The notes under the pieces are model-generated. The model was given only the letters and a program-made list of their open reading frames with translations, did no database searches and was not told the DNA's origin. Both the position numbers and the translations under genes were made by a program. A stretch of DNA of 61,449 bases, counting the filler, from Hausera hauseri (lineage: Eukaryota): the NCBI GenBank assembly GCA_046269625.1. It is 11 parts of 11 records of this genome, joined end to end, with 100 filler letters (N's around TTAATTAATTAA, not from the genome) between each part and the next. Parts side by side here need not be neighbours in the genome. Positions count along the whole stretch, not along the records: positions 51,447 to 57,246 come from JBJURY010186971.1; 10 more parts are not named here. One strand, written 5' to 3'. This document shows, one piece after another, positions 651-57,065 of the stretch (the stretch's first letter is position 1; each line of letters begins with the position of its first letter).

Positions 651-1098
651 ATTGGGTACTCCAGTCTTCTTGTACTGTCCTTTAGTTGAATCCTAACTTG
701 GGTATCCACGGGAATTGTTAATCTGTTAGTTCCACTCTTTCATTGAAATACTGGGCTAGGTATCTGCCGATAGTGTGGTCTTCTCTGGCATATCCGTTTC
801 CACTCACTGTCCGCCTTGGAACGGTAGATGCGTAAAATATAGCCTCTTTGATCTTTCCTTTGCTATAGTATTCGGCCATGACGAGGATTTGTTTATATTC
901 TTTAACTTGGCCAAATTCTGTGACAATAATTGGGGTATGTTTTTCCCAGTTCTTCCGAAGAACGTTAACTTCCGTTTTAAAAGGTTTCGGCTTAGTAATT
1001 TCTAGTTGGGTTTCTCTATCTTCTTTCCATTTTTCCTGATTTGCTACTCCCTTCTGATCTTTTATGGACTTCTCCGGGATTAAGTTATCTGTCGTTAG
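651..1098 (-). pseudogene. Frameshifted middle part of the accessory gene, linking the 487-aa ORF to the RING ORF
   Basis: Manual translation gives ...KQILVMAEYYSKGKIKEAIFY... and LTIPVDTQVRI..., matching MLVSTEYYSKKIIKEAMFF and IVVPVDKQIRV of 19082..19429. Confidence 0.7.
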
Positions 1099-2519: not shown

Positions 2520-2602
2520 ACTTACTCGACTGAAATAAAAATAAAGAAAATGAAACAAAACATTTTCTCTGTCTGATGATAGGATAACCCAATCTGTAGT
2601 TG

Positions 2603-6047: not shown

Positions 6048-6089
6048 GAGCGTACCTTCAATATCATTTATGTGGTCCTCTTTCGTTTT

Positions 6090-13009: not shown

Positions 13010-16000
13010 TTATTCCAAACGCCAATGTCCGTACGCCAAGCTCTTATTTCGCCCCACCCACTTACGCTTATCATCAATGCATGAAAAAGCGGCTTTTGTG
13101 TTGGTCACCGTATCTTGTGTTGAATCGACCGGATGATCGTTTGAGATAACAGCTCTTGATTGTCTTCCTTCATAGACACGGCGATAATCACCGTGATTTA
13201 TTTCCGTCTGGGCCAACTGAATTCCTTTGGCACGCATTTTAGGTCCATTGAGTTAAAAGACTAACATTTTGCCGTAGAAATACCCATTCCCGATACTGAA
13301 CCCGACCTTCTCTTTCATCCTTGAAGCAGCCGATTTTGTTTGTGATGACATTGCTATACAATGGATGATTCTGTGGGTAATTGGACGTGTCCAGTAATCC
13401 GTCTGCCTTCATTTGCTGCAGTAGTTGTTTGCGATTGACCTTTTCCAGTTTCAAGGAAAAACTATCTGTGTAACGGGCAATAATATTGATCCTGCTGTCG
13501 CCGTCGAACATTTGCCGGTAACGTGCCAAATCGCGATACTGCAGCTCATACATCCGCAACTTGCTCAGGTCCAATATCACTTGTCCGATGTAACTTCACT
13601 GTGTAAAAGCACGGCAACCATTCCATCGGCAATTTGCATTGACTGCCGAAACTGCGCCTTACTCGTGTACGTGACAAACTGCTTTTCGCTATTGTATAGG
13701 CGTATATTGAGCCGCTTTTTCATATTCTCCACTGCTTTTCCATACAGGGAATTGTTTTTCAGCTTGTAGTAGTCCTTTTCGAACTTTTCATCCAAGCTGC
13801 GGCTCGTTTCTCCGAATTTCCATCTATGTACGCCTTGAATATGGGAGCTTGAGCAAATCGGATTGCGCGATGTCGTGTGACGCGTACACCCTACTGCATG
13901 TAAAATTGCAACAGACGTCTATGAACTATGTAATTTTGCTTGGGTTCATGCGTCATAAGCAGCTTCTTCACCTTCGATCACGGTGGACATTGGCTAATTG
14001 GTGCGACCGGCAGTTCATCCAAAAAGTCATGCAGTTCACCTGGTACAACGTGTATGCTCTCGATACATTTTTCAGTATTGTGTCCAGGTCCCGTTTGTCG
14101 ACTACTCATTCGAATGAACCGAACGGCAAGGGTTGTGAAAGTGTCAAACCGTACAGGTTATCAATGTTGATATGCAACAGTGATGTGGTATCATCACTGG
14201 TTGCGTGATGGTTGTTGACAAATGTCATGCCGCCATGAATACCAATATCAAACATTCGGTGGATTTCCGAGTATTGCAACAGCTCGATATCCCGATTCAG
14301 TGACATCAGAGCTGATGCCCAAATCTTTCGCTCGAAACGCCTGAAGCACATCGGCTAACAGGAACACGTCCAGGTTAAGATAGTGGAGCATGTAATCCAA
14401 CATATTTCTACAGCCCAGTTCTGTCCAAGATTCTTGTGCTCTCCGATATTCATCTTCTGTGATGCCTGTCCATTGCAGCGGTAATTCTTCTGCTGTCCGG
14501 AGTCGCTCATATGATGTTGCAAAGTCATATGGAAATATGCCGTTGCTTTGTGCAATATGTGTGGGGAACTGCGTTGAGGTTATCGGTATATTCGGCAAGG
14601 CATTTACCAGATTCGCCAATGTTTCATTGAGAAATTTCAATGAATCAAGGAAGCATACCTGGAACCGGTTTATGCGTGTTGACAGGGACAGGTACTTATC
14701 CATTGTTGTTGGGATTATGGACAGTTCCCAGTGCTGAAATCCGTTGATGGCCCATTTCAGTATATGGTGACAATCATAACCTCGGAAATTATGAAAGATC
14801 ACCGTAGGAATGGCTGCACACGCATTGTTAAATAGCTTGCGTTGCATGCTGCCCCCAGGTATCGACCGTTGAAATGATCATTATCCGGTACGAGCCGTTC
14901 CTGTGCATCAAAAGGCAATATTTTGTGGCAGAGGTAACATTCATTGGTGACAGTGAAAAGCAGTGGTTTATATTCGTCTGTCCATATCAAGGGTTTAGTG
15001 CTATTGTTACTGTACCACGGCGCGATTTCCGTTTCCACAATTGTTTCAAACTGTTGCACGAAATCGCGTATACAGTTACAGCCATGAAAAACGTAATATT
15101 GCAGTTGTCCGGCGGCTTTGATTGGAATAACCAACATACCGACGGCGATTGGAATGTGCTTTTGGTCGTATACGTTGTGCCGCGGTAGGATTGCCTCCAT
15201 ATTGGCATATACCACACATACCGGAGTGTCTGTTTCCGACCAGTCACTGAATTTCAGCTCCTTTTTGACTGGCATGACGTACATTTTTGTCCCTAATGAA
15301 TTTTGTCTGCACACCGCCACATGTTTTTCCCATGTCGTTTTTGACCTGAAACCATACGCTTTTTGATTAATTGGTGGTGATCCATGTTCAGCAGTCTGTC
15401 CAAATTGGTTACTGCCACGTAGTGAAATTTATCTGCTTTTTCCAACAGCAACAAATTTACCTAGCGTCTATTCGGCTTTTTGTATCTCTTCGTATGCTGG
15501 TATTTCTACGATTGTGTTGTACCGGAACACGTTGATTGCCAGTGTCGGATTACGCCGTTCAAAAGCCGGAATGGTAGTCCAATTCTGAGAAATACTTACT
15601 GTACTGCTTTGGACAATTTGCATGATGTCTGGACACTTGTTCATATTTCAATATGGCCAGAATGCTGTAAATAAAGCAGTATTTGTCGTTAGTATTTTGT
15701 ACATTCTATACCGCCAGAGACTGCTTCAAGGATTCAGGTGTCGGTATGAGTGAACGTCCGGACAGGTAAATCATGTCACTCGTCTTGGTTAGAATAAAGC
15801 CGAGAGTGACAATCTTTACAATTCGCCAACCAGTGCCATTTTCGGTGTAGTTGGCGATTTATTCGTCAAGCTTCTCGCCTACATCGGCAATAAAATCCTC
15901 AAAGTATAGTACGACTCGATGTGACATGTACCATTGTTTCCTGTCACCTGCAGATTTTCAAATTCTGCAAGAGCATAATATTGCACTTTGCAGTGGTGTT

Positions 16001-17061: not shown

Positions 17062-17489
17062 TCACAAATATATTATTTTGCTACGTTTGTTTTCGTGAAT
17101 CAATATAATTTCTTTCACGTGTCTTTTTTGTTGTTACATTTCAGTATAAATACTTGCGTTTCCTTACGGTATGACATTACGGCATGTTCCATTTAACAGA
17201 ACTCATTCGTTTATATCACTCGTTCGACGGTCTCCGGAGTCACCTATGCAATCTTGATCGACCTTTACATGATTCACGATACCGTTCTCCCTATGAGATA
17301 CTCCGGCGTGCTGAGGAGAATTGGAGGGTACGAGAACCTTATNNNNNNNNNNNNNNNNNNNNNNNNNNNNNNNNNNNNNNNNNNNNTTAATTAATTAANN
17401 NNNNNNNNNNNNNNNNNNNNNNNNNNNNNNNNNNNNNNNNNNCAATACTTTGTTTTAGGATTGACCCTTATTTTGTATTTATTTTTAGA

Positions 17490-19400
17490 ATGGTAAGTAC
17501 GAACAGCCGACCTAGGATCGACACCTTTCTACAGGAATACGGAACCGTCCTCATTCCAAAATCCAAGGGAATTTATAGAAGAATCAACGACGCCCTGCAA
17601 ACAAAGGCATATCTGGAATATAAGAAAGTAACAGAAATACCCAACGACTTAAAGGGTACGACAGAGGATAATCGTATCGTCATGTTATATGCTATGAAAG
17701 ACAATCACCAAGCCGAATCTTACGATCTGAAGGAATTAATTCATAATCAAATAAACCGAGTGGAGAACCTATTTATACACCTCGCAGATGGAGAAATTTA
17801 TTACCGAATAAAAAACCAACAATGGAACGGAAACGAAGGGCGCCAATATAGATTCAGTACATTCAAAATAAATGAACAAGGTCTAGAAACCATCAATTAC
17901 GAACTAGAGTTTAGAGTAGCAGCGTTACCTGTCAAGTTGATGTTTGAAGTGACTTATAGAGAGAATTGCAACTTAGGTTTGCCAATTCTAGAATTTGAAC
18001 AGACCCCAACAGAGGAAGAGAAAGATGAACATAAACAATCGTACAGACTAGTTCAAGATGGACAAAATGTGAGAATAATAGCGATAAACTGCGGTAGAGG
18101 AGATGATGGATATGGAATACCCATCGAGATATCTGTCAGGGAGAGAAACGGAGTGGAGATATATTCGACGATAATAAACCCTCGAAAACTAGTACAGGAA
18201 TCATATGGAGAAGTAACAGGATTAAGAAAGGACCAGTTAATAAGTGGAACAGATATCTGTCAAGTCCGCTCAGAATTAGAACACTGTTTGTATGGTTGTA
18301 TGATAGCCGGTTATTATGCCCAACATGAGATGAAGCTATTAGGGATATCCGATGCAAATATTGCAGGACTTAGGGAAATAGCTTCTCATCCAATCGTCCA
18401 GGAACGGATGGAAAGAATTATACAAGGGAGAAACCGACCAACCGCGCCCGAAGCTTTCCTCAAGCTAACTATAGATGCTATGAGTGACCACCCGAGTAAA
18501 ATACCCAGACTTTTGATGGCCAGCCAACGGTCCAAATATTTGCAAGAAATATATGTTAAACTAAAATGGGAACATGAATGGACCCCAAGAAATCCCATAT
18601 ATAATTTACGCAACTCAATAGCCCCGGAACAACTAGACGGAAGATGTAGAAAGGGCATTAAGCCTTATTCCCCGATTCGAACTATCCAGATGATGGACGA
18701 ACACAATATCCAGATTACAGTACCAAAAAAGAAGATTGAGAACGAGAGGAGACTCCAAATGACTAAAGGAAAGGAGATAGTGCAAGAAACATCAAGGTGC
18801 CTACAAGAACAGAGAAAAGAAACAGGACCAGAAGTGATAAATAAAAAGATGAGATTAGAAAAGGAACTCCAACCAAGAAAAAAATTATCTATATACAATT
18901 ACCTATTTAAAAGACGGAAGACGGATGAAGAACAAGAACTAGACGATCAACCAAGCACTTCTCAAAGTACAGAACCGTCAAGGAAAGGAATTAGGAACCC
19001 CCTAATAACAGAAATCAGTGCCCTAATAAGCAAAAGAAGCAAAGACGATGTACATTTTAAAAAAACCAAGAATTTCCTAGAATGCTGGTGTCCACCGAAT
19101 ACTACAGCAAAAAGATAATAAAGGAAGCAATGTTTTTCGTAAAACTTGCCCCAGCCAGAGAAGTATTCGCAAATACATATGTGTGGGAAAACACTAAAAT
19201 CGGAACTTACCTTACATCGATCTTTCGTTCGAAAAGAACTGGAAAAATAGTAGTTCCTGTGGACAAACAGATACGAGTGCTGCTGAAAAAACAATATCAA
19301 AGGTATAAGATAGAAGGAACTATCCCTGACTTAGACAAGGATGTGATGACAGATTGGACTTTAATCCAAGTGGATTGCGACCCACGTAAAAGCTCCATTA
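17490..19400 (+). CDS. Diverged second copy of the Gypsy accessory gene (542-aa ORF plus frameshifted continuation from 19082), truncated before the RING
   Basis: Colinear similarity to 2519->~590. Ends LDKDVMTDWTLIQVDCDPRKSSIN versus LDKKEIVEWTLVAVSDDPKKSSID. Confidence 0.78.
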
Positions 19401-22400
19401 ACCTATGTATTAATGTAATTCCATTTTGATTCTTCACTTTTCTACTGAATGAACCATATTCTATTCGCAACAAACGGTTTGTAGTACTTTTAATATTGTT
19501 CAATCCAAAAGGGGACATTCTTGCTCTCACTCCAGTATGTTATTCTTATATTTGTTACATGCAGAATTTTCGCTACCTTCATGCACAGTTTCACTCCTAT
19601 GCACGCGGCCATTAACTCCAATCTAGGGATTCATATAGGTTTTATTGGGGCAACTTTTGATATTGTTGCGATTATATTCGTTCGTATTTTGTTCTTACTT
19701 ATACATATGAGATAAGCTACCGCCCCATATGCTATACTGGATGCATCACAGAATATGTGAATTTCCTTATCATCAGTCCCGTTCATTCCCATTCATCTTT
19801 CTATTTTTATTTCGTTTATTTCAGCTAATTGATCCAATCATGTCATCGTACGTTTTTCAACCCTTCGGGAATCTCATGATCCCAGCCAAATCCGTTTAAC
19901 CACATTTCTTGTAGCAGGCATTTGCCCACTATTGTGATAGTGCTCAATAGACCCAAGGGGCCGAATATTTTTGCTAAAGAACTTAAAATATTTCTTTTGG
20001 TTAATCTATTATCGTGGTCTCCCCCGCCGTCGAAGGTTAATCGATCTTCTTTTACATTTCATTTAAGTCCTAGAGTTTTTGAGACACAGCTGACTTCACT
20101 TTTGAAGGTGTATTCTCTTGTCTTCTCGCCTTCTGGGATTTTATAACATAACTGCTCTGAATTTGATAGCCATTTATGGGTCTTCATTTTTGATGTGCCC
20201 CAAACTTCTTTTAATTGGTGGTATAACTCAACGGTTTCACATTCTGTTTCAACGGAGTCTATACAATGGTGCATATACGTGGATTGTTTAATCGTTTCAA
20301 CCGCTCATGGATATGGGTTTTCAAATGTATCTGCGTTAACGTGGCTCACGAGCTGTGCCAGGAATGGTAAAGCATTCAATCCAAACATTACTCTTGTGAA
20401 TTGATATGCCTCGACATTACCATCCTTTCTCCATAGGAATGGTACGAATTTTCTGTCACCTGGAGAGATCCTAATCTGTAAGAACATTTTAACAATATCG
20501 CAGATCAATACAATTTTATATCTTCTCATACGTATTAAAATATCTACTAGATCTTGCTGTAGCTTCGGCCCTGGATATGATAAGTCATTTAAGCTTTTTC
20601 CTTTCACTTTTGCGGCTTCGTCGAAGTCTACTCTAACTTTAGTGGTAGATCTATCCGGTTTTAAAACAGGGATATGCGGCAGTATCCAATAATTCATCTC
20701 GATTTCCATCTTCTCTACTAATTCCACATATCCTTTTTTGATATGATCTTCGATGACTTGCTTTGGATATTGGTATCTCTTCCATTTCGTCTCTTCACGG
20801 CAGATAAACCTCATACCTTCCATCTTCAGTCTTCTTTATTTTATCTTTTGTAATCTGAAGAATTTCTTTATCCAATTTCGACCAAGTCTCTTTTACTTCA
20901 ACCGAATTTCATTTTCCCATAATCTTTTCATATTATCGTTCATTTCATCTACTCTGGTCCAATATGTTCGCACTAAGTTATTTCGCATTAAATTACCTTT
21001 CCGTTTATTCAAAGTTCCGACACGTCCAACCAAGGGGTGTCAATCTAGATAATAGTATTCCTGGCTTCCCGGAGACTTCTTTTGTGGATTTATGAAGGTG
21101 TATATAAATGGCACCTATAATTCCATCTGCATGCTCATCTTCTCCCGCTCCTACGAATTTAATATCTCGTAGGTGTGTCCATTGTCTCTTTTCTATCGTC
21201 CAACTGACGTAATTCATGTTCCCTGTTGGCTTTCTCATGGATAGTGCATTGAATCGTTCACAAATGCTATTATCCAAACCCTCCAAGATCTTGTGAACTC
21301 TGATCATATTTTGTTTTTGTTGCATACCTCCAACTACTGCCACTGTAACGTTTTCTTCTTCCCCACTAAGTTTTAATTGTCGTGCAATGTCTTCTTCAAG
21401 AAAACTATCAGTACTAGCGTCATACAACAGCATATTTACTTTAATTTTTTTGATTCCGTTAAGTAAGTATACCGATACGGTCGTCAAGGCTATTCCATCT
21501 AATACTTCAGATTTTTCTTCCTCCATCTTTCTCTTGTAAATTTGTCTTTCTGAATAATCACATTCATTTGTTTGGCAAGAAATGTCGTTCAATCGTGATT
21601 TTGTTCTGTCGGTATCTACGGAGGTTTTGGGGTTTTTGTCTTTATCTAAATTTCCATCAAGAATTTTTGAATAATTGACTTCTCGTTTTAAAGTTTTTGG
21701 AGAATCTCCATGCTTGAACCAACAATTCCCACCGTATCTGCAATTTCCTATTTGAAAGTATGGACAAGGTTTTTGATTTATATTTTTATAACTACTCTGA
21801 TCTCTCTTTTCATGTTGATACGTACATTAGTCTTTGAATTGGAATTTACCAGTTAGGAAATATATGCAAGGTCTCCGTTGGATCTCTTTATTTTTCCAAC
21901 AATTATTACTTCTTTCTATTCTTTTTCCTTTATTACGGAACCCAATTTTGTCTGTTGACTTATTCCTTTCCTTCTTTTTATCGGTATAAAAGGAATTTTT
22001 CACTAATCTTTCGGAATGTATATTTTTGTTTGGCATTAAAACATTTATTCCATGAACTCCTGCAGCAAGACGTTTTAACTCTGCTTCTTTTTCTACCCAC
22101 GCTTTCAAGTCTTGTACGTTTCGTTTTTATCCTTATCTTCGCGATATCGCTCCCATGTTAAGACCATAATTTCGGGTAACTTTTGGATTAGATTTTGTTA
22201 CAATAGACCGCCTTCCAACTCTATTTCAGGGTCTAAATGTTTCAATCTTACTATGGCTGAGTCCAATAACGTGGCGAAGGAGTCTAACTCTTTAATGTTA
22301 TGTACGCCTATTTTTTGGAACTCCATAATCTCTGACATGAGAGAGGCGTAATTTCTCTGGTTCCCTGCATAATATCTTTCCAATTTTTCAACAACTGCTT

Positions 22401-23720: not shown

Positions 23721-26597
23721 TAATACTTAAATGGCCTTGGCCTGATGTGACATTTGCGGGATAAAAAAATAATCACGAATTCACCAAATCCGGGATAAGT
23801 ACTAATTTCGGATTCACCCAATCCGGTATACTGTATTATCACAGATTCATCCAATCGGCGGATAAAAAATAAGTACCGATTTATCAATTCGTGAAATTCA
23901 CTTTTGTTTAAACGCATAAATTCAAAGGGGGTGTATAGTTTTGTGCCAGAACTCTCATTTTTCTACTACTCATGGATACTGTGTCGATTGCATCAATGAT
24001 TATTTGATTATTGATTGCCATTGTCCATTTAGATGTATTAGCAATGACAAATTGATTTATTTCAACTCAATTCATTCAGATAAAATGTGTAGAGATGACA
24101 ACTTTTATCGAAATAATGCCCAGCAATTTCTGCACTATTTTATTGATTCTGAGTCTGTTTGTATTGATCAAACATTGAAAAAGATTCAGAAATTTACTCA
24201 TGCATTACGAATGGGAAATGACTTTTCTAGTGAAGATGAAGAAGTGGATGTCTTTGGAGCAATACCTCATATTTATGTGATGAAAATTTCATGATTATAT
24301 GGACAATTTCTGGAAATATCGATTTTTGAATATATGACGTAATTTACATGATTCATGTCGAGAATTTTGCACATATCATAAATTAGACAATTCTTACAAC
24401 GGAAGTATTCGAATTGTGGCCCATGAATTTTTGTAAAATCAGGCAGTAACATGTTACTCATCATGTTGATTATTTATCACAAATCAAAAATAGCTGCAAA
24501 TTAAAATACGGAAGTTACAAATTTGTAACGGATATTCAATCCTCGCCAATCATAAACATTAAATATTTTGACTAATATAAATTGTATATAGATTTTATTA
24601 TATAAGCACACAGTTTTTTAAATATTAAAATTTTTCATTTCGAAATATGGCCTATTCTGTTGTCCACATTCTAAACTTCTTGTTCAGTAGTGACGATACC
24701 TCTCTCCTATGTATGAATTTTTATATCCATGAAATATACACGGTGATAAGAAAAATTTCGGAAAGTCTGCACGAAAATTCAATTTGTGTATTTGTAAAAT
24801 TTCCATATAGTACTTGAAAACCACTGATTCCGTCAATATTTTCCTCCTCGTCTGTCCGTTAATTTAGGCAGTCAGTCATTTCTGAAAGTGAATCCATCAT
24901 GCCAGTTGCATTGTGTACATTCGTGAATATTTTCATAAACACCCATTGGCCACTATTGGAATATTTCAACAGTCCAAAATGAAATATATATTTTACAAAC
25001 AACTAATCCGATTGTGACATTTAATATTGAATTTAAATTAAATGTGATTAAATTAAATTTTCAATTATTAAATAATTTAAATGAATTCCAATGGGGTATA
25101 TTTAAAATAGTCATTAAACAATAAAGTAATAAAAAATAAAAATACCAAATGAAATTTGTTTCTGATTCAAACTTATCAAATTGATTCTGAAATATCGATA
25201 TTAAAAATTGCAATTATTGAATTTCATTTAATATTCGATTTTCACATTTATTCATTTCGAATGACATTGTTATTGCAAGGACGAAGTTTCCATGTAAATC
25301 AAGGAGATTAGTCCGGAATATACTGACATTTTGTTGCATATTTTAAACGTCAATTATTGATTTATTGGATTTTACACAACAATTGCAAATTGTATTTCAT
25401 TTCATCTATATGGTATAAAATGCAGAAACTGCAATGCAAAACAAATTCGTATTTGAACTGTCTATTTCGACATTCATTCGTTGTCTAATGAATGTTTATC
25501 TGAATATGGTATATGATCAGTATTATCGATTATTAACTGAAATGCCATTTGTTATATACTTTACTTATAAATCAATAATTAATCGACATTAATTATTTAT
25601 TAAAAATTGATTTCCTTCAATCAATTTCCACATTACATATTAATAAATTTTGATATTACAAATTACGTAAAATGTACATTTTACAAATTTTTATTAAATA
25701 AAAATTTCTAATTGATTTTGTTTCAAATTTATTAATTTTTCTCAATAAATAAATTTTAATTGATAACAATAATTACCGTATTTGATACGGCCCGTTACGT
25801 GATTCAAAATTATGACAAAAATCTTACGGAAAAATATAAACATTTAAATAATACACATTATTAAATAATCAATTTTTATTTTTAAATATATTTTTAATTA
25901 CAATCAATTATTAAATATCGATTAAATTAATCTATATTTTTTGCGAAAATTTAACAAATTGTAATTTCTTTATTTGGAATTGATTTTTTGTGTGACATTG
26001 ATTATTTGATTATTGATTTTGATATACTACTTTAAATTGTAAAATTTGATTAAATGTTTAACAAATTTAAAATACAACTCATTTAATTAATAATGATACC
26101 AGAGATGAAAAAGAAATACAAATTTTACTTAATTTTGAATGTATACAGTAAAATATGATATGCACACATACACGTCATTTTAGAAATGGTATCGAATCAC
26201 CATTCATATTCCACAACGCAAATACATCACAAAAATATCAACACTACAATGATAGTTCCTTTGACTTTATTTAAATAAATTTGATTATTGATTTTAATTG
26301 ACAATTTAAATTTAAATATTTATAAAAAGTTAAAGTCACAATTGAAAATTTTTCTATTTACAGAATCCTTATTTGGATGAGTAAGATGTGAAATAAATGG
26401 GACAAAGAAAAATTTTTACAAAGTAATAAAATCAGTAAACGATTGCGATTTATTATATAATCGATTTCACAGTCCGATTTAAAATTTAATTTTTATTTAC
26501 CAAAAATATTTAATTAAAAAATTAAATTAATAATTTTATTTAATTAAAAATTTGTTTCAAAAACACAAAATAAGAAATCATATTTTAACAAAAATCA

Positions 26598-27563
26598 ATG
26601 AGTGAAAGTAATCAACAAACAAGAAAGAGAAGCAGTCGAGAAGTATCTGAGTTCGTAAAGAATCACGCATTGAATCTGGCACGTCAAGGAAAGACAATGA
26701 ATGAAATTTGTATTGAAGTCGGTCATTCAAGACCAACAGTTAAATATTGGGTTAAAAAGGCCCAATTGAGAGTAAATCCAGCACCAAGGAGAGGTCGAAT
26801 TCCAAATCAATTAAAACAGAATTGCACTGAATCAAAATTACCGAGAAAGAAAAGTAGCAGAGAAATTCCAGAATTCGTAAAGAATCACGCATTGGATTTG
26901 GTTGTCAAAGGAAATCGAGTCAGTGACATTTCGAGGGAAATTCGACGTTCGGCACCAACAATTAGATACTGGATAAAACGAGCTAAATTGACAGTAGCTA
27001 AAGTAAAACGTCAAGCAATCGAATTGCAAAAGACTCAAAGAAAACGAAGCAGTAGAGAAATTGCTGAGGAAATCAAAATTCGAGCATTGAATCTCTACCG
27101 CAGTGGGAAAACATTGAAACAAATTTCAAGAGACATTAACCAATCAGTACAGACTATAAGATATTGGATCATCAAGGCAAAAATTCTGCGAACTCGACAG
27201 TCAAAGGTAAATTCGACAAATAATGAAACTAATAACGAAATCGAATATTCAAATAAAATTCAGACAATCGATGAAGGACAGTTGATAAAATTGCATCTCA
27301 CAGACAAAAGTACCCTCACAGTGAAACAAGAACCAATCATTGAAAATCCACAATCAAAAATCGATATTGACAATCAACCAATCAATGCAGTTGATGAACA
27401 TGCGATGCATTTACAACAGACTCGACAAAAATGCAAAAGGGCCATGGAAATATTGGACACATTCATTACTTCATCACAGAAGACATTTTCTGAGATGCAG
27501 AATCTTCTCGATGAACTTGATGCTGAAGTGGAGGTGCATAGGATAAGAAAAACAATTTTTTGA
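26598..27563 (+). CDS. Intact single-exon protein with three tandem helix-turn-helix repeats and a C-terminal helical region
   Basis: Three copies of RK(R/K)SSRE...AL.L...G.....I...I..S..T(V/I).YW..(K/R)A. AATAAA about 45 nt after the stop. Confidence 0.8.
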   Translation: MSESNQQTRKRSSREVSEFVKNHALNLARQGKTMNEICIEVGHSRPTVKYWVKKAQLRVNPAPRRGRIPNQLKQNCTESKLPRKKSSREIPEFVKNHALDLVVKGNRVSDISREIRRSAPTIRYWIKRAKLTVAKVKRQAIELQKTQRKRSSREIAEEIKIRALNLYRSGKTLKQISRDINQSVQTIRYWIIKAKILRTRQSKVNSTNNETNNEIEYSNKIQTIDEGQLIKLHLTDKSTLTVKQEPIIENPQSKIDIDNQPINAVDEHAMHLQQTRQKCKRAMEILDTFITSSQKTFSEMQNLLDELDAEVEVHRIRKTIF

Positions 27564-37253: not shown

Positions 37254-39390
37254 CCCTTTTAATACTGCGGGAATATAAGTCCCAGACAATTTTCAAAAAT
37301 TACTAGTGCGAAAAGCATTCGCTTTTAAAGCGATTGGAAGGGGCAAAACGGTAGTCTGTGGTCAGTACTTCACAACACATGCTTCGGTTAGCATAACCTA
37401 ACTAATTCATACTTGGTATACGTTAATAAGTGCAGGCATGCTCTTCGTGAATACACATATAAGCAGAACTTTTAGTTTTTTCTGTTTTAGTGAAAATTTT
37501 GTGTTTCTAATTACGGAAGGAAAAGATAAATTACATGTAACATTTATATAAGGATAAAATGATTTGTATGCATTATTTAACCTTTGTTGTATTGAGGCAT
37601 ATATGTCCCTGAAGAGCTTTAGTGTGGAATGTATTTGTCCCAGCAGTATTTTATCATGCGAATTTAATTTTTATTATTGAAATAATTTTAGAATGAATCG
37701 ACCACTGTCTAACAAATAATTAGAGGACGAGCTTGGTAATTTATCTGATATGGAGGTGGATCCTTATCACGACAGTGACGATAGCAGTGACACAGATTAT
37801 AAAGGCTCTGATGGCTCTATGTCTTCTGAAGTAGGTAGCACGGATTCTTTAAATGGTGTAGATATCCAGATGCATGAAAATGTACAAACGGTAAATGAAG
37901 ATAGCGAAAGTGTAAATTTCACTGATACAACTCCTGCACAATCAACTATCAATACTAAATTTATTTGGCACGGCGATATGGATAATCTGTTCCCAAAAAT
38001 GTCACTACCTCAAGAGGACAAGGCAATTATTATGTCTAACCTAAACAGAGGTTCGACCAAGCTTGATTGTTTTTATAAACTATTTCCAAAGAGTCTCATA
38101 ATGCAGATAAGTTATACAAATCTGCGCCTACAAAAGCTCAATAACGCAAAGATGACATCACCAGGAGAAATAAAAATTATTCTGGGTTGTTCATTGATAA
38201 TGTCATATAATCGTGTACAAGCAATGCATATGTATTGGTCGCGCAACAAATCCCTCCGGAACGCAGCAATATCAGAATCCATTTCCCAAAATCGTTTTAT
38301 GCTACTGATGTCAAAATTGTATTTCAATGACCCCGAAAAACCTCCAGAGGCATAGAAAACGTATTACATTGAAGGCGTTTTGTCCTGCTTGAAAAATACA
38401 TTTTTGAAAGCGAGAACTGACATCACATTTCAATCCATTGATGAGTCAATGACGAAATTCAAAGGGCGGTCCAGTCTGAAACAGTATCTCCCCTTGAAAC
38501 CTGTCAAAAGAGGAATCAAACTTTGGACAAGATGCGATGCAGTAACGGGGTATGTTTATGACATAAACATATATAGTGGACAGGAAGCTGAAGTTACTGA
38601 AGGAACCTTGGGCGAGCGTGTGGTTCTAAAATTGGCAGAAACAATTACAAGTTCAAACGTTGCTTTATGTTTCGACCGTTTTTTCACGTCAACACGCCTA
38701 CTTGACACCATAAATTTTTCTGTTGTAGGAACATTTATATCAAATCGTAAAAACACACCCAAGTTTCAAACTAAACTAAAAGAAAGAGGTGAATGTGAAA
38801 TAGCAGTATGTGACGAAGGGATATTAGCAATCAAGTGGAAAGATACAAAAGATGTGTTACTTATGAGCAACTGTCACAATGCCACTATTGATACTACAGT
38901 TCGAAAAATGAAAGATGGTACTACTAAAAATATTGAATGCCCTGAAGCTATGATTTTCTACAATAAATATATGGGGGGGGGCGTAGATCATGCAGATCAA
39001 ATGATTACTTTATACGATTTAGATAGAAGTGGGAAATGGTGGAAGAAAGTATTTTTTAGGTTGCTAATGACCTGTGTTCATAATTCGTATATTTTGTATC
39101 AAGAACTCACTCGCAAAAAATTCCATTTATCGATTTCTTAGTAGATGTAGCTGAAGAGTTGATTAGTCAAGGACGATCAGAATCTTTGTACAAACGGTCC
39201 AGAAGACAGGGCAGGGTTTCAAAGAATGTCAAAGTTTTCGCAAATGTTGGAGATCATCTTCCAGTTGAAAAGGCGGCCGAAACAGATGCATAGGATGCCA
39301 GTCCAAGAAAATTGAAAAAAGGACTAAAATCATTTGCCAAAAATGTCAAGTAGCTTTATGTATTGATTGTTTTACACCATACCATAAATA
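37254..39390 (+). mobile_element. piggyBac transposon (left end and interrupted transposase, ~37693-39390) inserted at TTAA within Gypsy RT
   Basis: TTAA|CCCTTT at 37250-37259; SIDESMTKFKGR; FDRFFTS; YNKYMGGVD; C-terminal Cys-rich CQKCQVALCIDCF. Stop at 38353. Right end not found. Confidence 0.92.
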
Positions 39391-47466: not shown

Positions 47467-49200
47467 ATGACTTCTGATGTCCCCGTAATTCTAAATCATT
47501 TCAGCAAAACACTTTTTTTCTTTATTTCTCAGATCATAAATTCCGTCTATTCTATTCAATCGTTGCTTTACTTTATCTTTTGTCCACGACATTGCTTCTC
47601 GAGATATTTTGCTACTGTCGACAAAGTTACTCATTCTACATTGAAATTTAAATTAGCTTCACTGGACAAAATTAGTAAACTACGCTTTCATGATCTGAAG
47701 TATTTGACAGTCGTAGGAATTCATGAACTCGACGATGACTACATAGAATTTAATAAAATGACCCAACCACCTTGTGGCATTGTTAAATACTCACCACTCG
47801 TACTTTGTCCTACCAAACCGTTCAAGCCCAATACCGAACCATCTATGGAAATTAATGGATCTGTAATGAAACAAAGTGGAATCGGTTCACATTATCGCAA
47901 AGTAACCTTCTTAACTTCGTACAACCACGTTGACATACCACTCTACCCAGCTTGCCATCTATCATCGCTGTTTTCATTCTCTCTTTATGTCAATAATATC
48001 TTACTACAAACCGTATATATCACACAATGTATGGAAACATCACAATTATACTCTTTCGTTTATAATACCACCGCCTACAGCGATTTCTACCTGACTCACA
48101 ACGGTTTCATTTTAACTGACCTCACACAAGTCATAGCCTCACATCACCATCTATATATACATGTCAATCCTAGGGTCCGCGGCGGTATGATTGCTCCACT
48201 AACTAGTGACACCACCGATAAAGTGACCACAAAACCCAAACCGATTTTCTACTACCCCAAACCAAATCATCCACCTACTTCAACCGATGCAAATTCTTCT
48301 CAAAAAATCCTATCAATACTACACCACATTGTACTGAATACTTTACAGACAATGAGAAGTCTAGTAAAACCTGGCTCCACTTCCATCAGCTCTGGTTACA
48401 GTCCAACGGTATCACTGACTCGTTTTCCAAAGCTCATAATCTACTTTATCTTTTACCAAACTCTATAAAGGCTTCAATCCATAACTTACTGGACATCTTC
48501 CAACACCCTGACACTTATACACAATGGTTCAATGCTGTGTTAAAACAGACAGAACCACCAATTGATTCAATAATGCAGCGTTTCTTTAATGAAAATGCAA
48601 TGGGGACAAAAAACCTAGCGATTTCCTAAGTACCTCGTTGGCTCACTTACGTACTCTAGGCGTCACCAAGGAACATAACCCGGATCTACTTCGACAATAT
48701 TTCCTTAACGCTTTACCAATTCAGATTAGGGCTTTGCTTACCGTTGTTCAAGATTCTGCAGCCTTAGATAAGCTAGTTGAATTGGCAGATAAAGCACACG
48801 AAGTCTTACAAATCCAATTACAACCTATCATATCAGCCGCTATTACGAATGATGTCGATCAACGACATGCATCCATCAAACACCAGTTAAATCATTTACG
48901 TGCCAAAAATGAGGCACTACAACACACAATCAACCCCATCAACAATAAACTGAACGAGATTGCACCGACTCGACGTGAGGGTTTCATACGTGACAGTAAC
49001 CTTTCAGTATCTCGTGGTCGTTCACCTTCATTTGGACGATCACTGATTTGCTACTACCACGGTAGGTTTGATAGCAACGCGCAAAAATGACACCTAGGGT
49101 GCAAATTTTATGATCAAAGATACCATACAAACAACGTCATTTGCATATATCATGCAAAATTCAGACAATGCACGCAAATGCATTCCAGGTTGCACGTTTA
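47467..49200 (+). pseudogene. Gypsy gag with N-terminal leader (unknown ~168-aa region plus ubiquitin-like domain ending RVRGG), frameshifted
   Basis: Leader is in frame with MIAPLTSD (48187). Gag-like LLRQYFLNALPIQIRALL...LDKLVELADK; knuckles CYYHGRFD and CIYHAKF. Confidence 0.75.
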
Positions 49201-49399
49201 AAAACAAATCACACCATGCAAATGACGAACGCACAACTTTCGTTTCTAACAGTCGCTCAGGTTCACCGTTTTCAAATAACTAACTTCGCCGCCAGAGTTT
49301 TCGGCAAGCACTGTCGAAGGCAACTCTTTACTTTATAATAGCCGAAAAATTTCTTTTGCTGTGTTGACATTAAAAGCCTCCACCATCGGACCGACATCT

Positions 49400-51346
49400 C
49401 AACACAGATTTTCTTATCGATTCAGGTGAGGTGATTTCTTTACTACCGCTCACCTTTCCAACTCAACACACTCCATCAAAAATTAAACCTTTATTTACAG
49501 CTTCCGGACAACCGGTACATGTTTCCGGTGCATGTAGGCTTTGGTTTATCCTTTCGAAATTTACTCAAACGTTCCACTGGACATTTACCGTTGAAAACGT
49601 CCAAACAGCCATTTTAGGATCCGATTTCCTTTCGCACTATAACCTCCTTGTCGATTGCAAACAACGCTGCTTAACAAGTGGTCGCAATAAGGAGCGATTC
49701 GATCACGACGATACTATTTCAGCTGTCGTACGGGTGAATACAGCTCAAAAGCCGATATTAAAAAATTATTAAACGAACCTTTTTCTTACAACCATGGCAC
49801 CTTGCTTTATAAATCACTAAAGAACAATGTTATTGACGATTGAAGTTTACACAGAGATGAAAGTGATTCTGTTACTACTATCATATCCTTCGATAAAACT
49901 ACAAACTACAATATCATCTTCAATACTACCATCCTGCATCGAATACCACTTCATTCTCGACCACCAAGCAACGTCCAAATTGCTACTGTTACTGACACAG
50001 CCAAAGCTATCGGTAAGACTTTCTTGCTCCCACCTAATCTCTCACAGCTACCTACAACGTTACAGCAATTCGTCAACAAATCATGTCCACGCGTGCTTAA
50101 AAAAGATTGTACTTTTACTCCGGCCAACAGAACTTTACACCATATAGTTACACAGCATCAACGTCCAATACGTCAAAAGATACGACCTCTGTCACCTCGT
50201 CGTAGACAGGCCGTAGAAGCCGAATTTCTAGAACTAGAACATTCCAAAATTGTACGCCGCTCCAAATCCCCGTGGTCGTCACTACTACATGTCGTGCAAA
50301 AGAAGGACGGAACTTTTTGACCATGTGGTGATTACCGTCAGTTAAACACTTTGACAATAATGAATGCATACCCGTTGCCATTCATTAAGGATATCTTACA
50401 CCGTCTCGACTCAACTGCAATTTATTCTACTATTGATTTCTCCAAAGCGTACCATCAAATTCCTGTGGCACCTGAAGATATCGAAAAAACAGCCGTCGCT
50501 ACTCCTTTTGGCCTATACGAATATCTGTATATACCTTTTGGTTTACGGAATGTTGCGCAGACTTTCCAACGCCACATCGATACTATCCTTTCCGATTTTC
50601 CGTATGCTCATCCTTATATCGATGACATATTAATTGCTTCTTCCTCAACCAAACAACACGAAGAACACTTCAAATCAATCTTTCAACGCTTACACCAACA
50701 TAACCTGCAGATAAATTTCGCTAAATGTCACTTTTCCATAAACCTATACATTTTCTTGGTCATGTTATTTCTGCCGAAGGTCACTCGCCTCAGTCTGACC
50801 GAGTTGAAGCCTTAAAAAACGTACAGCTACCTCGTGCAACAACAGAAATGAGGAGTTTTTGGGATACTTTGTTCACAAGTATGTGCCATACTGCTCCGAA
50901 CTTACCGCACCGTTTGCTCATCTTAGTGGTGGAAACAAACACCAACCAATACAATGGACCCCTGAACTTGTAAACAAATCGAAAAGCTAAGAGAAGGCTT
51001 AAAAACTGTCGAAATATTAGCTTTTCCCAAGCACGATGCACAAATGATCATCAATACAGACGCCTCCACCACCGCTGTGGGAGCCGTACTTCATCAAATC
51101 TATAAGGGTGAGAACCAGCCTTTGGAGTTTTTTTCACGCAAGTTAACACCTCCCGAAACTAGATACTCCACCTTCGACCGAGAACTACTGGTGATAGTTC
51201 TGGCCTTAAAACATTTCTCACATTTACTAACTGCTCGACGTTTCACCATACAAACAGATAACAAACCTGTAATCAACATCATGACGATGAAACATCCATC
51301 ATCTAGGCAGGAACGTCAGATCTCATACTTGTCGACATTCAATTTT
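49400..51346 (+). pseudogene. Gypsy pol (protease, RT, RNase H), same family as 41046-44640
   Basis: FLIDSGEVISLLP; ILGSDFL; IDFSKAYHQIP; YIDD; TDASTTAVGAVL; FDRELL. Confidence 0.93.
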
Positions 51347-51446: not shown

Positions 51447-52400
51447 TCGCGTAGCTTATCAAATTTGTCAACCAATTCAGGTGTCCACTGGATTGGCTGA
51501 TGTTTTTTGCCGCCTCTTAGGTGTGCGAATGGTGCTGTCAATTCGGAGAAATATGGTACGTATTTATGTACAAAGCGTAGTGTACCAGAAAAGCTGCGCA
51601 TTTCAGTGGTTGTAAGTGGCAACTGGATATTTTTAAGAGCTTTGACTCGGTCTGGTTGGGGGAATGAACGTCTGGTAAAATAACGTGGCCTAAAAAGTTA
51701 ATGCGTTTTTTGAAGAAATGGCATTTATCGAAATTGTCTTGAAGATTATGGTGGTTAAGGTGTTGGAATATTGCGCGAAGGTGTGCCTATAACATTGTCG
51801 TGGAAGAAACGTTGTATGATCATGTCTATGGAAGGTTCTGTGATCTTAAGAACTGCGCTGAAAAGTTGGGAATATAGGTCAGGAAGTTCAAAGATTTCGA
51901 TGATGTTGTGAATACGTGTTTTGATGTTATTAGGGAGTAAGAAGAGAAGATTATGTGCTTTAGTTAAATAGTCAGTAATGTTATATGCCTGCAGCCATAG
52001 TTGATGAAATTGCAACCAAGTTTTGCTGGAGACTTGGTTGTCAATAAAGAATTCGGTGCAGTTAGGGAAAGAAGCGGAAGAGGTAATGGATGGGAGGTTA
52101 CTAGTAGTGGTAGGAATGGGTTTTTGAAGCAATATGACAGATTTTAATTTCGTGGTGGTTTTATCCGTGGTGTCTATGATTGGCGAAGAGTTCATGCCAC
52201 CATGAGTACGGAAATGTATGTGGAGATAAGTGTGGGTTGAGAAAGATGGTATGGTTCCGGTGAGAATATTATAAAACCGTTATGTGTAAGATAGAAATCG
52301 AAAGAGTTGAGTAAGAAAGAAATGAAGGTACACAGGGTTGAAATATATAGATGTGATATAATGAGTGTGTATGTGTTTATTATTAGGAAAAGAAAAATGT
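51447..52400 (-). mobile_element. Deleted copy of the same Gypsy family: Ubl leader and Gag N-terminus joined to an RT fragment
   Basis: DFYLTHNGF...YLHIHFRTHGG|MNSSPIIDTTDK; SKTWLQFHQLWLQ; RT thumb at 51447-51750. Confidence 0.85.
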
Positions 52401-52415
52401 AGAGTGGAGAGGTAG

Positions 52416-52607
52416 TGTGCCCAGGGGCGTGTTGCGGGGCTGAAGCAAAAAGCGCCGCCTGACCCACTGGCGCAGGGTGGGCAGCCGGGACCTCAGCCTC
52501 GCTGCGGCGGATCCCAATTTTTCGGGGTGACCGATCACCCCTCTGGCCGTTCAGGGTAGTCTTCACTTCTAAAGTCAAGTTGCTGGGCTTCACCGGGCAT
52601 GGTTACA
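52416..52607 (+). repeat. Candidate short GC-rich LTR (TG...CA) preceded by a PPT-like tract
   Basis: AGAGTGGAGAGGTAG|TGTGCCC ... GGTTACA. Sharp GC boundaries; internal hairpin GGGGTGA...TCACCCC. Confidence 0.5.
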
Positions 52608-54017
52608 AATGATTTTAATGGTGGTGAATAAACAAAATAATTTTTGTAGGCAAATTTGATCAAAATGTCCATATGGCACTTAATGTATACTGCAACAATT
52701 ATTCGATTACCTTTATATGAATCTGTCAGTCCCGATGCAATAACGAAAATGATAATCAAACCGGTCTGATTGATACTGTCGACGATATTGCACTTCTTTG
52801 TTTCGTTGATACCCCGCATATTTGTGGACAAGGCAGTCAACAAAGTTGGCTATGTCACAAAGAGATCCCGGTTAACCAGAAGAGGTTGTTCCGTTAAAAC
52901 TCAAATATCTCGAGTAAGATGTCGATCCTGCATTGTGGACATGCTTGACGGCTAATTGTGTACGAAATTCGTGATGACTTCCATTTAGAACAGACACAAT
53001 AGCGAATTGAATTTCCTAGAATAGTTCATGAAAATTTGCCGTAATATGTATGGCAATTCATCTTCCATCGTCGTATGTGCGTATCAGTCCATTTGTTATC
53101 GAGGATTAAACGTTTTGTCAAATTTAACGTTTTCGCTGAATCAAACGCGTTGTGTTTTGATTGCCAGATTTTTCTTTGTGATTTCACCAACATCAGAATT
53201 TAAACAGATGTTTACATCGAATTTTAATCTGCTTACCAAGGCATAAATTATGCTCTTTTGGTTAGTTGTGTTGCCGTTGAGCTGAAAGGACAAGAGTATT
53301 TGATCAATAAGTCGGACTGCTCTAGTTGCAAAACTAATGTAATCTGTTTCTACAATGTGCCCTATTATGATTTCCTCCATGGAATCAAGTAATCCGGTTC
53401 CAACTAGATTCCCTTGGCTAGAACTGACTTCATTCGTACAAGCCAGAGGATAAAGAAATGGTAAAATCGCTGCTGTAAAGTGTTGTTTAATAATTCCAGC
53501 AAATGGATAGAATTTGCCTTGAACCAAATCGCCAATCCAATCGCACATCATTGTCGGAAAATTACCATGATGAGTTCATTCCCGTCATGTTTTTAACACA
53601 GACCAGCAAGACGTATGTTTGCCGCAATGAATTATGACCGTTAGAGTTCTGAGTGCACAATTTTAATGCCCAGATATTCGCGATCTGGAAGTTTTAATAC
53701 ATCGACAAGTTCTTCAACGTGAATAACGACGAGCTTCAGTTGACTTTCGGACAATTCGTCGTCGGTGTTTGACTGGTTTTTATTAACAGATGCATTAGTC
53801 GATTGACAACATAGTGTTTCTATACCGTCCAATGAAGTATATGTACACTTTTCATCATTTAAAGACAAATTATCATAATGTCCACTTCGACGTCGTATGT
53901 CATTGGTGTGATCACAAGTAATTCTACTCAATGGCAAATTGCTGTTTTTCATCTGATGCGCACTGATCAGAGTCTGGATCGGTCTCTTGACGGAATGAAT
54001 TATTGTTTACGTATGTC

Positions 54018-54830
54018 TTAAGGGCAACTACACCATACCAGATGTTGCTTGTCGTGGACTGTTTGTTTTCCGCAGAGCAATTTGATAGACGTGTCAGAAT
54101 TCTGAGAACATTTCCCGAATCCTGATTCAGTGACGACCATAATCATGGTGTCATCGACATTAATTCTAAATATGTGAGCGATATTTGCATGAACAAACTG
54201 TGCAAGGCTGACAGTATTTATCCACATCGCTGCGAATATTTGTGATCCGCCCTTTTCAACTAAACAGTAATACAACGGTTCCATTGTTTTAGCCCGAACT
54301 GGAAGAATAAGGCAAAGATTCGGTTCCAATTTGTTCTGTCGAGTGCGACAAATCGGATAGACAATAACCAACTGTTGACGTGTGGCGAAAATCGAATGAA
54401 TTCGGGATTTGTTCTGGTTGACGATTTTCTGCGCTTCGAAATAGAGAATATTCTTTCTCAGTTTCTTGACTTTCTTCGGTTCCAAAACGACACCGACTTT
54501 CAGACATTCGTGGCAGTGGTTGTGTAGAAACAACAGAAACTCTTGGGCGTCCTGTTGATCATTGCTTTGCAAACTGCGTTCGGTATTTGGCAATTCCAAA
54601 CGGAAATCATCGGACAACGAATTACAGTCGAGTTGTAACAACCAGAGACTATTGAGAAACATGAAGAATTTCGTTAACAACATCAAATTCATAGTGTCTG
54701 AATTCTTCGAGGATTTGCTATCGTCAACGAATTCGTCGAGAACAAAATATTTCGCAAGTTGATCGATTGAATTCAAACATTAGATGATGATATTGATATA
54801 GCATGTGTTGCCATTGTTCGCAGTATCCTT
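54018..54830 (-). pseudogene. Ubiquitin-specific protease (USP, peptidase C19) N-terminal catalytic remnant
   Basis: Cys box ANNGNTCYIN (about 54795-54822), an in-frame stop, then QQDAQEFLLFL. No His box seen. Confidence 0.8.
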
Positions 54831-57065
54831 CGGTGTAATTTCCTCTGTTACTGTTCATGGGATGCAATGAACAATGCCAATCTCGATCGTCTTCGTCACT
54901 TCACAGACAAATGGCTAGCAACATCGCCGGTTTCACGATTTTGGTCATCATTGGAACGTCTCATTCTTGTCGACGATATGTCCAACGATTTGGAGAAAAT
55001 CATCTTCAATGAAATCAGACCCTTTTTCCCATCAGGTTGATTACAATTATCCAATTCTTTCGGAAATGTTTGGTTTTTTTGGTGAAGAATTTTAATCAAA
55101 CGAATTTGCTTTAGAAAACGAAGATCGAAGTTTGGAAGATACAGTAAAAGTCCTGTCAGGCTTTTCGTTGCAATTATTCACGGAACTCTTGGAATTTTCG
55201 TCGTCGATTTCTTGTCTTTAGAGAATGAACGGATTTCCCACTGGTACTTTTACGGTTTGACCAGAATTGATTGTGCATTCTGATGTTAGTTTGGAAAGAA
55301 AATTAACTGTTTTGTACTGGTATAATCTGACACCAGTTTCGAGTTGCCAACTCAGGCTCCCGAATTCTGAGAAAATACCGAACAACTAATATCTTACAAT
55401 TGATCAAGAAAATTAAACAAATCTCCAACATCATAACTAATGGCCTGTAGATTTAAATATTCATGCGATAATTTTAGATGTTTTTCAAATATTTTGATAA
55501 CTTCTTCCAAATATTGATTGTTGTTATCATAATCATTCCAGATAGGAGAATCAATGTCTTTCATAAGTGCTTGGATTAATAAAACAGCATGAGACGTGAC
55601 ATGCAATTATAAAACAATAGTTTGTAAAGACTGTCTAACGGCATGCGGTGTCATACTTTCGGACTATTGTTCTCTAGCCAGTCCAAAGTCACATAATTCT
55701 CTATTTCGACCAAATAAATAGCAATTTTTCAGCCAATCATTAGTTTTTGAATTAATTTTTTGTCCTTCATAACATCTAAATGCAAACCAGAGGGCGGCTT
55801 TCCGGTCCAATCTGGAACTTTAAAATTGTTGACATTTGGTATTTCTGATGGTCTGTGTTTAGACATTTTGCAACAAACTTTCAAATAAAACGAAAATTCA
55901 AATATTGAGTTTACATTAAAATGAATTTAAACAAATTATTTGTTATTAGGCATGAAAACATGTAAATCACATATCTATATTTCATAATTGAATTCGTGAA
56001 ATAAAATTTCCCGTTAACTTCAAACACGACACCAATAACTTTCATTGCTTGAAAATACCATAATTGTATTAATATCGAATTACGCAACAACGTTGGAAAT
56101 GATTTAGGTTCATTGTCTGGATTTCGTCTGCTGGGCAACTTAGACAATCAAACGGTTCCAAAAGTCTACTAATCGTCCACGGTGTAAAAACTAACTCCAT
56201 TTGACGCGATTGTCTTTCTGATCTTAAAAGTGGTTTGGATGATGTAATTGCAACATCGTACGTTTTAGCTTTATCGTTTGATGCACTTCTCGGCACCTGT
56301 CTGAGGATTGTATTTGTGGCTGCATTCCAATATTTCAAATGATTTCATTGCATCCCATGTTGAAAATATTTTGTGGCTGATTGTTGAAAGAGATTCACAT
56401 TCCTTTAGGAGGCTACTCGTCATATACAAAACAACATCAATTTCCAATAAATTTTTTATTGAACTTAATATGTCAATATTACGCATAGTGTCAATGACAA
56501 ATCCAATATCGACAAGAATTCTGAGAGGAGTTCCTGTACCAAATTCTTTGACATTTCTGAAAAATCTTTAAAGCCTTTTTACACCGTTTTAAGCGAATTT
56601 AATTGTAGGTTATATTTAAAAAGATTTCAAAACATGAATGTTAAAACAAACTATTTTAGCAAATGTTTTCAGCGTGTTTCAGTATTTCTTCCAACTAAAC
56701 AGGAGTAAATTAGGCTTATTTACATTTGACATTGGGGTGGAACGGAAATGACTTCAGCATTTTTTTGCAAACAGATGACTGCATTTTATGCATCGCTTAA
56801 CGGACCAACAGTGCTGTCATTTGTGATACTAGAGGCGCTACTCGATGTAACTTCTATCAAGGCNNNNNNNNNNCCGTGTTCAACCCAATGGGCCAAAGTG
56901 CACCAGCCACTGTGTGCACCACAGACAGGATGAAAGAGATTGTTGATCCGGTTAAAAACCAAAGTGGTGGTGGTGTAAAACGAAAAAGACATGTAAATTA
57001 AGCTGCTCTGAAACGAAGATGATTAAGTATAAACAAACGCCATAAAAGTACGATTTTCGGTGAAT

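Follow-up and report, generated by a model that had tools for sequence, protein, structure and literature searches.

A predicted ubiquitin-like leader with a Gly-Gly tail in front of Gag in CsRn1-type Ty3/gypsy retrotransposons: a candidate pro-domain for host deubiquitinases

In a group of Ty3/gypsy retrotransposon lineages, Gag is preceded by an in-frame leader whose tail motif recurs across lineages and ends in two glycines, and the residue after these glycines varies. The leader is predicted, with good support, to adopt a ubiquitin-like beta-grasp fold. The explanation that we favour, at a probability of roughly 65%, is that leader and Gag are made as a single precursor from which a host deubiquitinase would remove the leader by cutting after the Gly-Gly (GG), as happens in FUBI-eS30, in SDE2 and in the ubiquitin insertions of pestiviruses; the support for this reading comes from few lineages.

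The window, by which we mean the whole stretch of 61,449 nucleotides of Hausera hauseri DNA that was analysed, consists of 11 eukaryotic contigs with artificial N-TTAATTAATTAA-N spacers between them, so that adjacency across the spacers has no meaning. Two copies of the element are present. Copy B, on the minus strand of contig 10 (51447-57246), is a decayed, internally deleted Ty3/gypsy retrotransposon; copy A, on the plus strand of contig 9 from 47968 onwards, belongs to a sister family. In copy A the order is leader, Gag, protease (49374-49769), reverse transcriptase and RNase H, spread over several frames, while copy B goes from the leader and the first capsid half of Gag directly to the end of the reverse transcriptase: in tblastn, similarity to the Gag of P0001 ends at 51785 and similarity to the Pol of P0022 restarts at 51783, which places the internal deletion at about 51784. 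Both copies terminate at contig ends, and both are dead. Judging from a capsid identity of 64% and a synonymous divergence (pS) of 0.6-1.0, they are separate families that are similar through descent. The features are as follows.

52196..52404, minus strand: predicted ubiquitin-like leader of copy B, from the first strand to GG, split over two frames; aligned with its relatives in alignment A6 and matching P0001 at E 1e-5 (pairwise).
52273..52299, minus strand: DFYLTHNGF block, corresponding to the third strand and turn in the predicted beta-grasp; 9/9 identical to copy A.
52263..52272, no strand: frame break in the leader of copy B, from reading frames and length differences against 10 related contigs.
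52196..52210, minus strand: R-x-x-G-G tail with a putative deubiquitinase cut after the second Gly; motif in 6/7 lineages, in register with the ubiquitin tail.
52193..52195, minus strand: Met after GG, possibly an ancestral Gag start codon; M in 3/6 leader-bearing lineages, not conserved in the family.
51785..52192, minus strand: linker and N-terminal half of the Gag capsid, DUF7041-like (Pfam PF23055 at E 0.084, below cut-off); 64% identical to copy A.
51449..51783, minus strand: end of reverse transcriptase and start of RNase H, fused to Gag by the internal deletion, up to the contig end; from tblastn with P0022, with 20 contigs continuing differently at 51784.
52405..52602, minus strand: open frame upstream of the copy B leader, 66 codons without Met; partly similar to the N-terminal extension of P0001, with synonymous differences at 52405-52423.
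52522..52533, minus strand: possible degenerate tRNA-Trp primer binding site (uncertain), with 2 mismatches to a 12-base motif.
47968..48186, plus strand: predicted ubiquitin-like leader of copy A, frame intact, ending R-V-R-G-G; from an AlphaFold model, Foldseek and VIA matches and a profile match at E 5e-7.
48187..49177, plus strand: Gag of copy A in several frames; tblastn with P0001, 45-47% identity.
49374..51346, plus strand: pol of copy A (protease, reverse transcriptase, RNase H) up to the contig end; Pfam RVT_1 and RT_RNaseH, and tblastn with P0022.

Two candidates for further parts of copy B were rejected. The stretch 52399-52608, bounded by TGTA and TACA, was considered as a long terminal repeat (LTR), and neither a second copy nor a target duplication was found for it. 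A ubiquitin-specific protease gene lies upstream of copy B (53144-54779, minus strand; Pfam UCH at E 5.6e-9), split by introns like its neighbour, a NIPP1-like gene with an exon at 55732-55926 (minus strand, E 3.5e-8); past about 52750 the contig depth drops to 54-84 (the contigs were aligned only up to 53200). With these properties the protease gene was dropped as a part of the element, both genes being host genes, and its position next to copy B looks like coincidence.

A phmmer search with the frame of copy B against 1.84 billion representatives gave six matches at E up to 0.001. Four of these, P0001-P0004, from metagenome records in ENA and JGI, are whole or nearly whole Gags with a capsid half 29-51% identical to those of A and B, and all four carry an in-frame leader of 70-81 residues; the record of P0004 begins inside the leader, which is whole in its cluster member P0009. 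Their leaders end in R-L-L-G-G, R-L-C-G-G, K-A-Y-G-G or R-L-L-G-G, with the capsid Cys 20-39 residues further on, and those of copies A and B in R-V-R-G-G and R-T-H-G-G. The motif [R/K]-x-x-G-G therefore closes the leader in 6 of the 7 lineages examined, with leaders that are mutually only 15-32% identical, and all six leader-bearing lineages have the basic residue three before GG (R in five, K in one). As background, the motif occurs 16 times in the 105,581 residues of 120 Pol and Gag-Pol matches, a chance of 0.006 per 40 residues, and four Gag cores contain no GG in 1151 dipeptides. GG is followed by M in A, B and P0001, by S in P0002, by N in P0003 and by G in P0004. Of 1904 frames in the window, a profile made from the four outside leaders alone picked out the leader of copy A at E 5e-7, the next best frame being at 0.24.

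The seventh lineage, P0005 (with P0010), has no leader in its record; these two near-identical gene models show a diverged N-terminal capsid half fused to leucine-rich repeats, possibly a domesticated capsid fragment or a chimeric prediction. P0006, a match of 33 residues in a leucine-rich repeat protein, was dropped as a chance match. Nine canonical DUF7041 Gags (L005, P0017, P0021, P0050, P0055, P0100, P0126, P0127 and P0132) lack the tail before the capsid (0/9), where three resemble chimeric models and five begin at Met, so that an upstream leader could be hidden; the only conclusive leaderless control is L005, in which a stop codon precedes the Met by five codons. Other searches added little: a word-index protein search with the copy B frame for longer proteins gave none among 833 candidates, family profile A2 retrieved only P0001 and P0003, and metagenome contigs gave one locus from 121 candidates, L005, a canonical element without leader. 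Viral contigs searched with alignment A5 gave 0/40, and four viral loci from 143 candidates were rejected as look-alikes of 34-41 residues in closed frames.

How the leader folds had to be approached through profiles and models. Pfam and PDB searches with the leader of copy A alone came back empty, and PF00240 matched neither this leader nor any of the 10 aligned rows (Rad60-SLD appeared in one, at E 0.9). With the profile of alignment A6, all 14 rows retrieved from the PDB are ubiquitin fusions, eS30 or SDE2 precursors, at E 0.066-1.5 and thus none significant alone; in the two alignments shown, GG stands in register with the ubiquitin-type tail. The AlphaFold2 model of the copy A leader (10 rows, no templates) has strands at 9-16 and 19-27, a helix at 32-43, a strand at 48-52, a helix at 60-66 and a strand at 69-76, with a mean pLDDT of 74, a core of 75-88 in ten-residue blocks and a low-confidence tail at residues 80-83. 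The best Foldseek match is at E 0.0024, which is not significant, and among the matches listed 48 of 48 are ubiquitin-fold proteins. A VIA search of 48,161 chains gave Z 8.0-10.8 over the best 50 matches, with PB1 domains in the top three places, followed by SUMO, Ubl domains, FAT10, ISG15, ubiquitin and Fubi; identity to solved ubiquitin-fold proteins is 7-22%. The leader of P0003, 20% identical to that of A, was modelled by AlphaFold with the same order of elements, and the Atlas's own model of P0003 finds ubiquitin-family clusters at TM 0.72-0.78; feature scores of both leaders to named clusters are below 0.9 and are leads only. In P0003, residues 91-114, the GG tail and the linker, fall under pLDDT 50, and the linker behind GG is predicted to be disordered; the helical capsid part of this protein matches the PEG10 capsid domain (TM 0.63 by target, E 0.077).

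The fold alone does not separate family members that are cut from those that are not, and a domain that stays on Gag with a structural or regulatory role (matrix-like, as a shuttle or as a degradation tag), with GG as a flexible hinge, would agree with the high rank that PB1 and integral Ubl domains take in the fold comparison, with the strong divergence of the leader from ubiquitin, and with the internal SUMO-like domain that the available text of PMC6431247 describes in the planarian Burro gypsy polyprotein. A hinge, however, has no need of [R/K]xxGG in the ubiquitin register across six lineages with such dissimilar leaders. We also looked at the positions that we take, by alignment, to be those of I44 and K48 of ubiquitin. 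The first varies (T, Y, M, H), no leader has Lys at the second, and the leaders of A and P0002 have no lysine at all, which argues against a degradation tag that accepts chains and against a true modifier. We thus regard a permanently attached domain as unlikely.

The same positions bear on another possibility, that the leader is cut off and acts mainly as a free molecule, either as a decoy for ubiquitin-binding domains or deubiquitinases or as a conjugated modifier. Cutting would expose a free GG, and the excerpts of PMC13572447 describe binding of the free SDE2 Ubl, through its terminal GG, to the ZnF-UBP domain of USP5; the fold is also retained over great divergence. The conserved binding patch and the chain lysines of conjugatable modifiers are nevertheless absent from the leaders at the aligned positions, surface residues are unconserved, and constraint is weaker than on the capsid; one would expect a specific binder to retain a surface. 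This role is distinctly improbable in our view.

The comparison of copies A and B, from which the leader was noticed in a first-pass annotation, supports part of what was then claimed. DFYLTHNGF and GG-M are indeed both present in copy B: the former lies at 52299-52273 on the minus strand, and after five more bases a different frame takes over at 52267 with the piece that runs from ILTG to HGG-M. In copy A they are found at 48082-48108 and 48181-48189, and the Gly codons differ as described (GGT GGC in B, GGC GGT in A). The frame shift had been ascribed to an insertion of about 5 nt; the five-base offset is real with respect to the distant copy A, but as a history of the break an insertion is probably wrong, since ten closer contigs from sequencing run X1 differ from B by fewer than five bases at 52263-52266. 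Copy B is damaged further at 52373-52400, where it shows small length differences from its relatives, and by the internal deletion at about 51784. The frame that carries its hairpin at 52346-52387 is ambiguous, both frames being weak against the leader profile (E 0.75 and 1.2). The DFYLTHNGF block is identical in protein and has five nucleotide differences, all at third codon positions; the block was picked because it matches, and so this is no clean test. The contrast drawn with neighbouring residues is not clear-cut: the linker after GG is identical at 10/18 aligned codons, compared with 10/24 and 20/39 in the leader pieces. Because the neighbours are not clearly less conserved, the two copies alone are no proof of selection on the junction. 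Piecewise pN/pS between A and B is 0.42 and 0.47 in the leader, 0.44 in the linker after GG and 0.21 in the capsid, with pS close to saturation; by these figures the leader is under constraint, though weaker than that on the capsid and not above that on the linker.

Closer relatives come from run X1, with 3331 contigs aligned on 51450-53200 and 364 on 52150-52470. Length differences from B cluster at 52263-52266 (the ten contigs above) and at 52373-52400 (five rows of 1-4 contigs each), and none are listed at 52150-52262 or 52267-52372. Indels scattered without regard to frame, which had been named as the sign of a neutral leader, were therefore not seen in these contigs, which drop rare variants and dip in depth at the breaks. 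The single-site differences are the 40 listed out of 91, of which three inside the break and two in Gag were excluded, and they were split into segregating and private at 70% of depth, a cut-off that was set after seeing the table. In this set of 40 listed rows, segregating differences are synonymous in 7/13 cases at 52196-52372 (p 0.02-0.08, depending on transition weight) and in 7/10 at 52393-52414; pooled, 14/23 are synonymous where 24-35% would be expected (p 0.0002-0.01), the rows being non-independent and the counts not equal to a dN/dS estimate. In two wrong frames, the same 13 differences are synonymous in only 3/13 and 2/13 cases. Differences private to copy B, in the same 40 rows, are synonymous in 3/11 cases, which fits neutral decay; one more private row, at 52423, is synonymous and stands outside both counts. 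The GG and Met codons carry no differences among the 40 of 91 rows listed.

The proposal of protein-level selection on the cleavage site can thus be kept for the ubiquitin-like core and for GG, given the predicted fold, the tail motif across lineages and the synonymous excess among related copies, and not for the Met, which varies. As far as sequence can tell, GG rather than GG-M is the conserved junction feature; that cleavage takes place there is what we infer. These data also speak to the idea that a ubiquitin-family mRNA was captured and that its relic, the leader, is not translated; Gag would then start with the ATG that follows GG, and A and B would agree there only through descent. Met directly follows GG in A, B and P0001, G stands at -3 in A and B, in canonical relatives the initial Met lies 20-70 residues ahead of the capsid core, and an upstream start is not conserved. 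Against a relic stand the absence of the junction Met in P0002, P0003 and P0004, a frame that is open from leader into Gag in copy A and all four outside lineages, a synonymous excess that is confined to the leader frame, and a fold that is kept at low identity. We consider a relic very unlikely.

Without Met after GG in three of the six lineages, their Gags cannot start at this point, and in the reading that we prefer, translation would begin upstream of the leader, which is its weakest link. Copy A has four in-frame ATGs upstream of the leader, the nearest 34 codons before it, copy B has no Met in 66 codons, and no upstream start codon is conserved. The N-terminal extension before the leader varies as well, from about 15 residues in P0003 to about 95 in P0001, and this would suit a device by which the position of the start ceases to matter: leader and Gag would be made as one protein, a host deubiquitinase would cut after the two glycines, and Gag would be freed with a defined N-terminus wherever translation begins. 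The leader might in addition aid folding or expression, or serve as a host-timed switch. The GG-M of three lineages may be the old Gag start codon behind a captured unit, or the junction of a polyubiquitin message; the 8-row capsid tree has none of its five branches supported, so it gives no order for gain and loss of the Met. A domain that shares 7-22% of its residues with solved ubiquitin-fold proteins is not certain to be recognised by a host enzyme. We also entertain, as a speculative and rather unlikely extension, a retrotransposon ubiquitin mimic in which capsid assembly is licensed by a host deubiquitinase, depending on the state of the cell, and the released domain, its GG exposed, is a decoy or modifier in the ubiquitin system of the host.

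It could also be argued that the element's own aspartic protease removes the leader and that host enzymes are not involved, as copy A encodes such a protease and the junction is predicted to be disordered. The motif, however, copies the ubiquitin tail, the signal of ubiquitin-specific proteases, and GG is found nowhere in four Gag cores, where sites of the element's own protease would recur; retroviral-type proteases usually cut between hydrophobic residues. We therefore rate self-processing at this site as highly improbable.

By its domain order and its CHCC motifs, the element is classed as CsRn1-type. The gypsy order is seen in copy A (Gag, PR, RT and RH up to the contig end) and in a sister on contig 8 (RT-RH-IN), and two CX2HX9CX3C (CHCC) motifs are present in each of four whole relatives, while they are degenerate in copy A and deleted in copy B. 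DUF7041 (PF23055) stays below the Pfam cut-off, at E 0.084 in copy B and 0.0002-0.012 in three relatives, with 4.7e-5 as the best value; the family profile finds 7/8 PF23055-bearing RT matches at E under 0.01. In the RT tree, copy A groups with P0018, P0019 and P0022 (support 95), and the nearest named RTs, 50-58% identical, come from DUF7041-bearing animal elements. For the primer binding site we used a 12-base motif that we take to be that of tRNA-Trp; it matches 52522-52533 with two mismatches, with 4 such matches in the window where 2.1 are expected by chance, which is no excess over chance, and no such site was found upstream of copy A.

The CsRn1 clade is known from ecdysozoan and lophotrochozoan animals, according to the available text of PMC2582038, and shares with our element, through CsRn1, PwRn1 and AgCR, the Gag-PR-RT-RH order, the CX2HX9CX3C motif and probably a DUF7041-like capsid. 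Taken with the intron-split genes on contig 10, the animal range of the clade makes an invertebrate host likely. The in-frame, GG-tailed ubiquitin-like leader and the second CHCC motif set our element apart from the clade as described there, in a text whose available part does not contain the word 'ubiquitin'.

The sister on contig 8 (40733-46912) has a pol of the same clade, its RT being 62-67% identical to that of copy A, and its Gag lies off the contig. Behind this pol there is a long pyrimidine-rich stretch, with an LTR-like start at 44591 after a purine tract; similar short copies of this start are found at 45545 and 56881-56924. The window also contains another gypsy element, at 93-7197 (minus strand) and 17445-19429 (plus strand), in which extra frames come after RT-RH-IN. 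One lies at 3023-4135, a second, whose end is hydrophobic, at 2603-3022, and a RING finger is encoded at 93-692; a further frame of 505 residues has no Pfam match and shares 39% identity over 413 residues with a frame of a different contig. The element possibly carries 3' accessory genes, among them a ubiquitin ligase. Fragments of a protein-primed DNA polymerase B (14248-15428, minus strand), of a BEL/Pao-like protease-RT region with a CCCH finger (20305-21826, minus strand) and of a piggyBac-like transposase (37720-39141, plus strand) are present as well, as is a 324-residue frame with three repeated helix-turn-helix units and no transposase catalytic domain in the frame (26589-27563, plus strand). 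A palindromic repeat at the start of the copy A contig (47013-47170), 76% similar to the start of contig 2, is probably a small non-autonomous element.

Several known systems resemble the arrangement proposed here, as far as the available parts of the respective papers describe them. In FUBI-eS30 and ubiquitin-eS31, ubiquitin or a diverged Ubl precedes a structural protein and is removed by a deubiquitinase, USP36 in the case of FUBI (PMC8354635), and such precursors are the top rows of the A6 profile search; they are host genes, whereas the carrier here is a mobile element, with a far more diverged domain, a variable N-terminal extension and a putative cut. The excerpts of PMC13572447 describe SDE2 as having a diverged Ubl as pro-domain and show that cutting by USP5 requires GG and an Arg three residues before it, the same spacing as in the leader tail, and sets a new N-terminus; in SDE2 the Lys after GG is conserved and gives an N-degron, whereas the residue here varies between M, S, N and G. 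In the cytopathic pestiviruses BVDV CP1 and CP Rit, a ubiquitin unit behind other sequence is a host-cut signal in a viral polyprotein, and such inserts, even behind foreign sequence, are cut by host hydrolases to give the authentic start of NS3 (PMC8310069, in its available sections); these insertions are recent, nearly intact ubiquitin and found in single strains, in contrast to an old, fixed and diverged domain across a retrotransposon lineage. The giant Burro elements of planarians resemble ours in their SUMO-like domain, which in the accessible text of PMC6431247 is internal, accessory and downstream of Gag, with no N-terminal GG leader described there. The 2A-like peptides of non-LTR retrotransposons are likewise a borrowed device that splits a retroelement polyprotein, but by ribosome skipping and not by proteolysis (PMC3708506, in the part available). 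A report of a ubiquitin-like unit on a retrotransposon Gag was not found in the literature searched, which excluded subscription journals, Repbase reports and supplements; the accessible part of PMC3383448 mentions only a SUMO-interaction site.

A practical consequence concerns annotation: a gene model begun at a Met within the leader or downstream of it, as for P0004, loses the domain, and Pfam is blind to it. The Gag of LTR retrotransposons is taken to begin with a Met of its own and to be processed by the element's protease. If our reading is true, a lineage in which the pro-domain persists although the capsids have diverged to about 30% identity would leave the first step of maturation to an enzyme of the host, a fixed and old trait that would parallel the ubiquitin captures of pestiviruses. 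Mobile elements would then join the short list of natural Ubl-fusion precursors, and there would be a testable interface between host and element, namely which deubiquitinase acts, when it does so and whether uncut Gag fails in assembly.
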